From positions 1 to 28,609 of the forward strand of contig JBEIFH010000018.1 of the NCBI GenBank assembly GCA_040382515.1: a DNA stretch of 28,609 nucleotides, written 5' to 3'. Made by a program: the position numbers and the translations under genes. The stretch is from Chlamydiia bacterium. GTDB taxonomy: Bacteria; Chlamydiota; Chlamydiia; Chlamydiales; RGXB01. Positions 1 to 5,634 of the stretch are shown here, in pieces (position 1 is the first letter of the stretch; each line of letters starts with the position of its first letter). The notes beneath the pieces are model-generated. The model was not told where the DNA came from. It was given only the letters and a program-made list of their open reading frames with translations, and did not search any database.

Positions 1-1127
1 AAATCTCTTCTATTTAAATTGAACTCGCTGACTGCGCTTAAATTGTCCTGATGTAAAAAAACCCGCTGTGACCAATGACACAATGTTTCGAAAATGTGCT
101 TATGAAAATGCGGTCTTTTTCTTAAAATTTCTAAAAGAGTCACTTCAAGAGGTGAGGCGAGAAAAAATTGGCAGGGGCCATTTATGAATTTTTTATAGAC
201 GCTGTCATAGTGCGAGCTTTCCCCCAAGGATGCTAATAGATACGAGTGCATCTCCTGTTCCATGTCTAATAGCGGCACCCCGTCTCCAAAAAAATTTCTC
301 TCAATGATCCCTATCATCTCCCTTGAGGCAGAGTGTCTAGTCAGAAGGTTTCTAAGGTTCATGAGAAAAAGAACCCTCTCTTGATGGCCATGCCCTCGAA
401 GGAACTGAAACAAGTTCCATTCGAAAGTTGCAAGATCCTCCGACACAAGAGCCCCAACAGATCTTTCTATCAATTCGTATTGAGCGTGCCAGCCTTGCGT
501 GCATTTTAAAATTGCCCTGAGTGCATACGACTCTGCATTATCCGGATACGATAAAATAAGGTGCTTACGATTGTTACACGCCAATGCATGCTCCAAAGAG
601 ATGCTCTTGATGTAACCGGGCAGCAATTTCATGCAGGGCATCCCATCGTTGGTGATATCCACACCAACAGCATCTGCGTCAAATAGGTGGGGACGCTTGG
701 CGGGGTGGGGAAATTTTATATCTACATCACCAAATGAAACCATTTGAAACTTATGGTTGATCCTTATATCCGATTCTTGAAATCCGTAACTTACAAGGTA
801 AGGGATGAGCCGGGCTAATAAAGTGGGAAAATCCCTCTCCCTATAGGGGCTAAAGATGGCTACATCGAAGTCATTTTTGGGATGATCGAAAAGAATTTGT
901 TGTGCCGAACCTCCCACGATAAAAATTTGACAGCTATCTAATGGGGACAGGAACATCCTAAGATTTTGAACCAATACCCCTTTTGTCAAAAAGGTATTAC
1001 CAATATTTTCTGAAAAGATTGTCTGTAACCTGAACGAAGAGCCAGAATCCAAAGGGGTTCCCTGGTCGAGCATCTCAGGAAAAAATGCCGGGGTAAAGCT
1101 TATGTTCCCACTGTAAGAGATCGTCAA
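1..1127 (-). CDS. Pol-beta-superfamily nucleotidyltransferase, TENT5/FAM46-like; 3' end runs off the window
   Basis: Absent from the ORF track and translated manually. TTG start at 1127, with AGGA 6 nt upstream and an in-frame TAA just before it. Open for at least 375 codons to position 1. Motifs IVGGSAQQIL, NDFDVAIF, DVDIKF, KRPHLFDADAV and LFQFLRGH are colinear with the 1108-aa ORF. Confidence 0.8.
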   Translation of the reverse strand, partial: MTISYSGNISFTPAFFPEMLDQGTPLDSGSSFRLQTIFSENIGNTFLTKGVLVQNLRMFLSPLDSCQIFIVGGSAQQILFDHPKNDFDVAIFSPYRERDFPTLLARLIPYLVSYGFQESDIRINHKFQMVSFGDVDIKFPHPAKRPHLFDADAVGVDITNDGMPCMKLLPGYIKSISLEHALACNNRKHLILSYPDNAESYALRAILKCTQGWHAQYELIERSVGALVSEDLATFEWNLFQFLRGHGHQERVLFLMNLRNLLTRHSASREMIGIIERNFFGDGVPLLDMEQEMHSYLLASLGESSHYDSVYKKFINGPCQFFLASPLEVTLLEILRKRPHFHKHIFETLCHWSQRVFLHQDNLSAVSEFNLNRRD

Positions 1128-1332
1128 AATTTATCCTAAGAAATTATTCAATTCAATATTTTATCAAAAACACAAAAAAAACAAACGATCTTTTTTTTCG
1201 GTTTTTAAAGAAAAAATGCAGGATCGTTGTTTTAAACCCCTTTTTTTTGTTTATTTCAGGTTAAGATTTTTTGAAAAAAAAGATGTTACCGTGTAAGGTA
1301 TTAAATAATAATTTAAAACTCTAGAAGCCTTT
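1128..1332. promoter_or_regulatory. AT-rich divergent intergenic region, probable bidirectional promoters
   Basis: Very AT-rich with long A/T runs, between divergent starts at 1127 (-) and 1333 (+). Individual boxes not resolved. Confidence 0.4.
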
Positions 1333-5300: not shown

Positions 5301-5634
5301 GCTCGGGAAAAAAAACCGCAATGTCAATATCTAAAAAGTCTTTTTCTACAAATAGGGACTGGGTGGCCCCCCCGATCAGTATCGGTAAATACCCGTTGAA
5401 AATAACATGTTTTACAAAATTTCCCACCTTAAACCTGATGGGAGGATCCTTGGGATCGGTTGATGTGAGTTCAACAGTTTTGCGAAAAATCGCATCTAAT
5501 TTGGTGATTTGGCTCGGAGTTAGAGATTTGTAGTATTTATGCGAAATCGGTTGGCTTTCAAGAGCGCCCGATTGAGGTACGGCAGCAACAACGGGGGTTT
5601 GTAGATTAAAAGTGGCTGCGTTTGGGTTCAACAT
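2308..5634 (-). CDS. Large protein: N-terminal TENT5/FAM46-like nucleotidyltransferase domain plus about 800 aa of unknown, probably helical region
   Basis: 1108 aa. LIGGATQSL (aa 86-94), LDIDI (D102/D104), FDFKF (D159), KRTHLFHHDAL, FKEALDCL, ELDYYLEGH. Start codon overlaps the rlmI stop by 7 bp. Confidence 0.8.
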   Translation of the reverse strand: MLNPNAATFNLQTPVVAAVPQSGALESQPISHKYYKSLTPSQITKLDAIFRKTVELTSTDPKDPPIRFKVGNFVKHVIFNGYLPILIGGATQSLFVEKDFLDIDIAVFFPEQPDPEYFTQLCLTYFQSLRPSFTEEDLKSKKYVRWNAAYQSMETKEFDFKFVSFLDKRTHLFHHDALCTELSLNAKSQIFGRATLVPYAKFGVEKGCFKEALDCLLSKKLKLSDPCSVIKPLFRVCGHFTKGFTSEFNHREVIRLHLDGFDYQEGQFLRELDYYLEGHVSKETTDFFIANLMTLLDEQSPHPRAKNFLELLQGRYGKHFQAKVFLDNFLSVDDKRSFLKKERLITTSKTLLRGENESHLISQMQSDPQEGEGVLPKLRPNLFQKGESSKLAQAICCQILRLYDTDVLCLEQRVALLESKDRSSRPDLDAIRQALTNPVLNERGRALFHKLSHADKTQILDALTEHPKWREQVLQSIFDRSLAMRPKDREKHLNGFDPALRVELLLLKNNFTKCSLNYLVKSVQEMGTTHFSTQTLIEIFHHLSLDRKAKLGRFEEEILECLVDRKEDQREFPLLFESLGRDLITMKVLPEQTCLKLLREYPSPLGTDYPDWIKALLLKFYAVKSGASTPIDEFASIVTSSKVSSCPTPFMEMVSQHNRDFFTQGLGSLIDRHPCKLTAAQLYRFSPVKSDEAANSFKDILQSTATYENIKGKLFDFLSFVEQLAQEDPLAALKAYNHIANFLHEGFGEGVVYSFEETFELFGKSLLKILPLSTGVESSGEMIHQIVTKLVIASFDPKDDRLIRFLDDNRILLGLQTNRGEYPHILDAAMVSLERSAGIVELTKQIDANCKKEIRGNELAHISLALMIQKAFLDIEKKPDPQSFNKESIKSLGFLFMGYLHHGALEGEKCRFYNERMIGSSKNIMGFVHRYRKEIDAIYSTLQLADGEKDLFAFTILNNFWECFEICKQDFDRDEWRLLFDGFGSAVRFATEKTNDRVVEPVYAAYRHGADLVDLALKEEQEANLREFIPCIVEKIELFRDKRFSLRPPHDVHKDCSTKFAEECYKKISVKMAQMPDGELKEWLRGESSKILQVVAKLKKIATNASGP

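Follow-up and report, generated by a model that had tools for sequence, protein, structure and literature searches.

The window analysed here is the whole of a 28,609-nucleotide (nt) contig from a Chlamydiia bacterium (GenBank assembly GCA_040382515.1, contig JBEIFH010000018.1), which is contig C18 of a genome, G000, of 1.39 Mb and 93% completeness, and it carries two genes, A and B, whose products begin with a domain that is almost certainly kin to TENT5/FAM46, a family of poly(A) polymerases. Open reading frame (ORF) B (2308..5634, minus strand) encodes 1,108 amino acids (aa), comprising a leader with a PAM2-like motif (5602..5631, minus strand, aa 2–11), the TENT5-like polymerase domain (4735..5529, minus strand, aa ~36–300) and a ~800-aa C-terminal region of no known family (2311..4704, minus strand), in which neither a Pfam, NCBIfam or Atlas match nor a membrane segment was found. 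ORF A is present with its 5′ part (3..1127, minus strand), including the TENT5-like domain (330..1055, minus strand, aa ~25–266). The 375 aa of A that lie in the window are not the whole protein: the contig end cuts the frame of a ~1,895-aa protein, the first 20 nt of contig C16 of the same genome overlap the left end of the window in frame with A, the remainder lies at C16:1–4581, and the ortholog in genome G002 is one uninterrupted frame of 1,895 aa. The left edge of the window was covered or passed by contigs of all four sequencing runs examined, one of which added 958 bases.

An earlier note on this DNA had described A and B as two paralogs. Their homology was confirmed (26% identity over 222 aa, E = 1e-8 by BLASTP, limited to the first ~270 residues; E = 9e-6 by tblastn within the genome), and all nine pairs of sequence blocks that it had matched between them fall in the same columns of a 17-row domain alignment. 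Their number was too low, as tblastn found a third copy, C (2,092 aa, C16:6094–12372), on the contig adjoining the window. A, B and C are ~20–25% identical to one another, and no clear membrane segment was found in any of them; the C-terminal region of B is 28–35% identical among B orthologs and unlike those of A or C. Each of the three is orthologous across the genus and together they form one clade (99 SH-aLRT), and therefore the duplications predate the genus.

As single sequences A and B matched nothing in Pfam, NCBIfam or the PDB sequences, so their kinship is visible by profiles only. A profile of 17 domain rows, all from the same genus (A1), matched human TENT5A among PDB structures with E = 3.3e-10 over positions 6–268 of 303 and three TENT5C chains with 2e-6 to 1e-5, whereas CCA-adding enzymes were found at 0.36 or worse and in the first motif only. 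A wider profile of 24 bacterial-type rows (16 from GTDB genomes and 8 unnamed bacterial-type proteins) gave 2e-26, 5e-26 and 2e-23 for TENT5A, TENT5B and TENT5C, respectively, against 2e-3 for a CCA enzyme and 0.05 for E. coli poly(A) polymerase (PAP), again in the first motif only. Comparison of A1 by hhalign with 18 eukaryote-like TENT5 sequences, which were A1 hits or their cluster mates and so not independent of it, gave 99.7% over 263 columns, versus 51% over 36 columns with 13 chlamydial class II enzymes. A hidden Markov model (HMM) of eukaryotic sequences only found the domains of B and C (E = 2e-10 and 3e-8, respectively), and a class II HMM found none of A, B and C (best 0.3). Pfam NTP_transf_7 (PF07984) matched 3 of the 17 rows, with a best E of 0.0036 and below the curated cut-off of 27 bits, and had no match in window A or B and none in the whole-genome search; since that model was trained on eukaryotes, the missed cut-off lowers formal membership rather than kinship.

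FAM46 belongs to the same fold class as the class II CCA/PcnB enzymes (PMC7049688), and the bacterial members (PF01743) do share the GG...DxD first motif with A, B and C, but the match ends with those 36 columns. The GGxVRD, RRDFT and EDxxR motifs were absent from A and B, as the earlier note had said of the first two, and neither had a PF01743 match; the first two motif types are present in the two ordinary class II enzymes of the genome. Class II ancestry as the closest relation was rejected on these hhalign and HMM values. With the known TENT5/FAM46 proteins (PF07984; PDB 8exe, 6jyj and 6w36), the chlamydial ones share a catalytic and a helical domain that align colinearly along ~260 positions, as well as the catalytic and most RNA-binding residues, and they differ in length (1,100–2,900 aa versus ~350–500 aa in eukaryotes). 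The TENT5/FAM46 kinship put forward earlier is thus borne out by profile searches against solved structures, by profile–profile comparison and by the sub-cut-off Pfam matches, with TENT5 matched over the full domain and CCA/PcnB over the first motif. These domains represent a real and apparently undescribed bacterial TENT5 branch residing in giant, effector-like chlamydial proteins.

Residues were compared in FAM46C numbering mapped through the 6w36 alignment, by which G73-S74, D90, D92, E166, K168, R175, K246 and H295 of FAM46C correspond to G88-G89, D102, D104, D159, K161, R169, R235 and H279 in B, the equivalent set in A being G72-G73, D86, D88, D136, K138, R145, R204 and H246. All three catalytic carboxylates are therefore kept in both proteins (D102/D104/D159 and D86/D88/D136), as the earlier note had stated. 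The A/B/C clade comprises 27 rows, and nearly all of them have counterparts of G73, D90, D92, E166, K168, R175, F179, D182, K246 and H295; changes at these residues of FAM46B/C, including K168, R175, D182, K246 and H295, kill activity (PMC7049688, PMC8286142). In 26 of the 27 clade rows hG[GS], DxD and the third carboxylate are all kept, and the carboxylate triad is intact in 26 of the 27 clade rows and in 66 of 74 covered bacterial-type rows outside the clade, the other 8 having lost a carboxylate. Among the RNA-binding positions in clade rows, K168 is K in 26/27, R175 is R in 23/27, K246 is R or K in 27/27 and H295 is H in 26/27, and all four have equivalents in each of the three paralogs. 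A conserved arginine was considered as the equivalent of R268 and rejected, since it aligns with K246.

The ratio of nonsynonymous to synonymous substitution rates (dN/dS), computed between G000 and G002, was 0.20, 0.23 and 0.30 in the TENT5 domains of B, A and C, respectively, and 0.26–0.38 over the whole genes, compared with 0.075 and 0.008 for two housekeeping neighbours. These values bear on the idea that A, B and C are secreted decoys or scaffolds, in which the TENT5 domain would catalyse little and instead bind RNA or TENT5 partners of the host, the large C-terminal regions carrying the function. Such a role would suit a domain that makes up only 15–25% of each protein, the carboxylate losses in 8/74 other homologs and 1/27 clade rows, and the absence of an R240 counterpart described below; yet DxD is kept in 74/74 covered distant rows and 26/27 clade rows at ~20% overall identity, and the domain of B is more constrained than its C-terminal region (dN/dS 0.20 versus 0.42), so that we consider decoys improbable. 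Overall, the catalytic carboxylates have been retained under purifying selection together with most TENT5 RNA-binding residues, and A, B and C are very probably active enzymes.

The leader of B points to a possible target. PAM2 motifs follow the consensus LNxxAxEFxP with the core LNxxAxx[F/W] (PMC7356810) and bind the MLLE domain, which is nearly confined to poly(A)-binding proteins (PABPs) (PMC6805484). Residues 2–11 of B fit the core LNxxAxxF and match 4/6 consensus positions, compared with 5/6 in the G002 ortholog and 6/6 in the ortholog P0004; among B orthologs the free positions vary and L/F, N, A, F and P are constant. Only the published core and consensus were counted as tests, relaxed patterns picked after viewing the leaders being left out of the count. 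When the first 40 aa of 1,032 ORFs in this genome were scanned, B alone had the core, which is present 6 times in the 390,072 residues genome-wide. Bacterial-type homologs carry the core in 6/99 leaders versus 0.05 in shuffles, four of the six being B orthologs. Outside the A/B/C clade, the core was found in 2/72 leaders (shuffles 0.04, p ~0.001) and at least 4/6 consensus positions in 4/72 (shuffles 0.39, p ~0.0005), on at least three separate branches. One homolog with a strong core, P0021 (2,873 aa), also shows an internal repeat of the second domain that follows its TENT5 domain.

The leader of B is thus a candidate PABP-binding mimic. Like Paip1/2, eRF3, ataxin-2 and LARP4, B has a motif of LNxxAxEFxP type in a short low-complexity leader; unlike B, the known PAM2 proteins are all eukaryotic, and none of 20 eukaryote-like TENT5 hits has a PAM2 core. 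In mammals, TENT5A is found in a complex with ATXN2, itself a PAM2 protein (PMC13646263), and by analogy B may carry in cis what host TENT5 borrows in trans. Among the papers listed, our literature searches found no bacterial effector with a working PAM2 motif, the sole mention being YopE as a non-hit at E = 5.2.

Regarding the place of action, the genome encodes a type III secretion system (T3SS), with SctN and SctR over cut-off plus an SctV-family gene. S/T/P/N-rich leaders mark T3SS substrates, and the S/T/P/N share of the first 25 aa averaged 0.41 in 49 full-length homologs versus 0.22 in 641 ORFs of the genome, with 57% of homolog leaders above the 90th percentile in this measure, which reflects composition only. 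Housekeeping tailing is covered by the two ordinary class II enzymes of the genome, one of CCA type and one that we take to be of PcnB (poly(A)) type from its signature pattern, and PF01743 was present in 25/25 genomes tested; one genome has, in addition to its two usual enzymes, a further PF01743 match within a frame of 634 aa (G032:C82:3254–3691). Environmental chlamydiae are known to possess expanded families of eukaryote-like effectors (PMC4209131).

An alternative is that the proteins act inside the bacterium, in RNA turnover or maturation or as defence, toxin or signalling nucleotidyltransferases (NTases) of Gad2-like or CD-NTase-like kind. The start of B overlaps the stop of an RlmI-like 23S rRNA methyltransferase gene (5628..6836, minus strand), here as in relatives, and a PrmA-like gene (6895–7740) lies upstream of that; we regard both as context outside the system, although coupling of B to rlmI/prmA does favour an internal role, as do the class II, bacterial-type fold of FAM46, the phage Gad2-like Atlas neighbours and very weak CD-NTase hits of the wider profile (E = 0.09). 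Those neighbours (PF26128) are the Atlas clusters that come closest in language-model features, the sole basis of this comparison (score 0.94, with 21–35% of members in the family); the 152–169 shared features are below the 170 typical of true family members, and Gad2-like NTases are mostly phage proteins of ~200–430 aa. On the other side stand the ordinary CCA and PAP enzymes already present, the patchy distribution (35/400 genomes, see below) with paralog expansion, dN/dS of 0.26–0.38 versus 0.008–0.075 for housekeeping genes, effector-like leaders and a PAM2 motif that has no known partner in bacteria. An internal role therefore seems improbable, at about the same level as decoys. The effector reading gains three supports, namely PAM2 in B, the T3SS genes and the separate housekeeping CCA/PAP enzymes, and A, B and C are predicted, with high probability, to act in the host.

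Taken together, we favour, at somewhat better than an even chance, the interpretation that these are secreted TENT5-family polymerases that tail host RNA, with B anchored on PABP-coated mRNA. This estimate combines a kinship that is nearly certain, an enzyme very probably active, a site of action very probably in the host and, given an active enzyme there, A-tailing of mRNA at least by B, which is likely. A, B and C would be delivered into the host cell by the intracellular chlamydia, most likely via the type III system. Their N-terminal TENT5 fold, as predicted from profiles, with an intact two-metal site and most RNA-binding residues, is the sequence-based part of the scheme. The S/T/P/N-rich first 25–35 residues would serve as secretion signal; in the host cytosol, PAM2 of B would dock on the MLLE domain of PABP and place the enzyme at the mRNA 3′ end; and, by analogy with TENT5 biochemistry, AMPs would be added to A-rich 3′ ends, altering the stability or translation of host transcripts. 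As a guess, the long paralog-specific C-termini could pick a place or transcript class, so that the three paralogs divide targets among them; A and C, which have no PAM2, would be targeted by other means.

The product or substrate in the host could also be a different one: tails that are mixed, made of U, or short and destabilising, tails added to tRNA or other non-coding RNA, or NMPylation of host proteins. In its favour, the genus has retained three paralogs of ~20–25% identity from before its split, which suggests different jobs; A and C have no PAM2, and the R240 loop differs from FAM46C and between paralogs. This explanation could hold for A and C even with B tailing mRNA. Against it, all characterised TENT5 enzymes add A to A-rich RNA, the K168, R175, K246 and H295 equivalents occur in all three paralogs, and PAM2 points to mRNA for B. 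We consider it unlikely, though clearly less so than decoys or an internal role, and on the sequences at hand host-mRNA tailing is better supported than protein NMPylation.

Several observations weigh against host-mRNA tailing by A, B and C. R240, in the RGGG loop of FAM46C, and R268 are not kept in the chlamydial domains, with no arginine at the aligned place; a lysine follows two positions later in B orthologs, and A and C have no basic residue. R240 is needed for FAM46C activity and R268 partly needed (PMC8286142). S74 is replaced by G, as it is in 8/20 eukaryote-like rows, and the choice of ATP is unreadable from sequence because the known base-reading pair is missing from FAM46 (PMC7049688). 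A, the paralog most diverged from eukaryotic TENT5, is weak with the eukaryote-only HMM (best domain E = 0.03), and the nearest Atlas clusters by features are Gad2-like rather than TENT5. PAM2 is absent from most family members, from all 10 rows of A or C and from half of the 12 B rows, including 3 of 6 genus genomes with a B start (six of the 12 match at least 4/6 positions, two match 3 and four lost the motif), and Pfam PAM2 (PF07145) matched one of 20 scanned items, P0018 (E = 0.039, 14.1 bits versus a cut-off of 20), and not window B. The leaders of the window itself reach only the 89th–93rd percentile in S/T/P/N, and B is translationally coupled to housekeeping rRNA and r-protein methyltransferase genes, an overlap that may reflect constitutive expression or speak for a role inside the bacterium.

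The distribution of the family was examined at several scales. An HMMER scan of 1.84 billion representatives returned 93 hits at E ≤ 1e-3, of which 20 were classed as eukaryote-like by length, sequence and tree position and 4 as off-target, the rest being bacterial-type and mostly 1,200–2,900 aa long with the TENT5 domain N-terminal. Names were obtained for few of the 30 hits looked up, namely two Caenorhabditis, Trichuris, Arcella and two Chlamydiia bacterium. A word-index search gave 3 proteins for B and 1 for the wide profile, far fewer than the full scan. With the B domain as query, 6/6 same-genus genomes matched, as did 1/34 others, that match containing four stops. The wide profile matched at least 35/400 genomes and at least 29/212 genera in a sample of the phylum, in which up to 5 candidates were scored per genome, one genome was unscored and 12 of the 35 positive genomes had supplied profile rows or close kin. 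In family f35 (genomes of 1.0–1.3 Mb), which we take to be Chlamydiaceae, 0/29 genomes matched. Chlam_OMP6, tried as a taxon marker, had no match in any genome, including the controls. Two narrow queries, which are weak tests, found no relative in viral contigs.

In a quick unrooted tree (29 of 52 rows, long branches dropped), three chlamydial rows, L056, L063 and L066, were placed beside eukaryotic TENT5 with 98 SH-aLRT, while eukaryote monophyly was not rejected by the approximately unbiased test (p-AU 0.42). The phylogeny suggested in the earlier note yields chlamydial neighbours of eukaryotic TENT5, and we claim no donor for a transfer between chlamydiae and eukaryotes. Two further homologs are of note. 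A 1,560-aa protein (L085:4776–9455, G018), beside a ClpC-type gene, has the most TENT5-like domain of the chlamydial rows, and one near eukaryotic TENT5 (L084:7498–11680, G100) is split inside the helical domain into overlapping frames of 384 and 1,038 aa, among bacterial neighbours that include a RING-like/TPR gene at 2270–3385. The main distant clade has a conserved second domain at aa ~330–480 that is absent from A, B and C. For the phylum, we give about an even chance to the broader proposal that environmental chlamydiae inject bacterial-branch TENT5 poly(A) polymerases and that several lineages separately gained a PAM2 mimic tying the enzyme to PABP-coated mRNA.

Within the genus, B, A and C follow one another in an array, with X between B and A and Y between A and C, both on the opposite strand, in G000, G001, G002, G004 and G005, and G003 and G006 show pieces of it on short contigs. 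The G006 orthologs of A (L011:256–1672) and B (L028:470–4008) are each in two frames, which in this 79% complete assembly may be error or decay. Gene X (1333..2253, plus strand) encodes 306 aa of no known family with a hydrophobic stretch at aa ~228–253 (dN/dS 0.19). Gene Y (L001:4587–5882, on C16, minus strand; 431 aa, dN/dS 0.12) is highly conserved, lies between A and C in all arrays and had no PDB, Pfam or NCBIfam match; its D-x4-N ... IDTE pattern is reminiscent of an atypical kinase. The hydrophobic stretch of Y resembles that of X, and both have a short hydrophobic motif, S-x-x-S-x-G-x-x-P, near their C-termini, which might anchor them in a membrane in the manner of inclusion proteins. 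Promoter and terminator scans gave chance-level results only.

Elsewhere in the window, a Ser/Thr kinase fused to a formylglycine-generating-enzyme-type domain (15748–17538, minus strand) is presumably Pkn1-like. A 363-aa DUF4116 protein (21852–22943, minus strand), whose start we take to be F-box-like, is likely another effector, and two orphan ORFs of 183 and 304 aa at 24428–25906 (plus strand), with low-complexity N-termini and no family match, are possible effectors. Two overlapping short ORFs (171 and 119 aa) at 23180–24045 (minus strand) resemble pieces of one glycosyltransferase-like gene. Near-identical DNA occurs in lake, freshwater and aquatic metagenomes from several studies, and the host is therefore probably a freshwater eukaryote; no RNA dataset was among the sequencing runs listed with such DNA.

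FAM46 has been described from eukaryotes only, namely animals (Metazoa), choanoflagellates, Amoebozoa and Guillardia, with no chlamydial mention in the available text (PMC4857005). The earlier note knew of no description of such a system, and likewise our literature searches, with subscription journals and preprint supplements outside their coverage, found none of a chlamydial or bacterial-effector TENT5/FAM46 among the papers listed; preprints found in bioRxiv from 2020 onward did not mention Chlamydiota. A close functional parallel is Legionella PieF, an effector by which the poly(A) tail length of the host is altered, as proposed for A, B and C; PieF, however, inhibits the CCR4-NOT deadenylase instead of acting as a polymerase and, going by its description, has no sequence relationship to them (PMC12255788). 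In architecture, the NEX/PEX families of environmental chlamydiae are similar, with paralogs bearing a eukaryotic-type N-terminal domain, long C-termini and T3SS signals; the domains there are of F-box/BTB type, the putative NTase belongs to a different family, DUF294, and DUF1693 goes unmentioned in the available text (PMC4209131).

Bacterial effectors that target host RNA have been little explored (PMC5570926), and the broader proposal, if true, would make these the first bacterial effectors to write poly(A) tails on the mRNA of a host. A bacterial TENT5 branch spread through the phylum, together with a PABP-binding mimic, would offer an intracellular bacterium a direct and testable route to set host mRNA tail length, as a constructive counterpart to PieF of Legionella. 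A tailing enzyme naturally anchored on PABP, as predicted here, would be of possible use in mRNA work. From the ~100 divergent TENT5 variants one can read which residues are needed by the fold, and as new sequences for the question of TENT5 origin, the bacterial family may bear on the patchy spread of 'prokaryotic-like' TENT5 in animals and amoebae.

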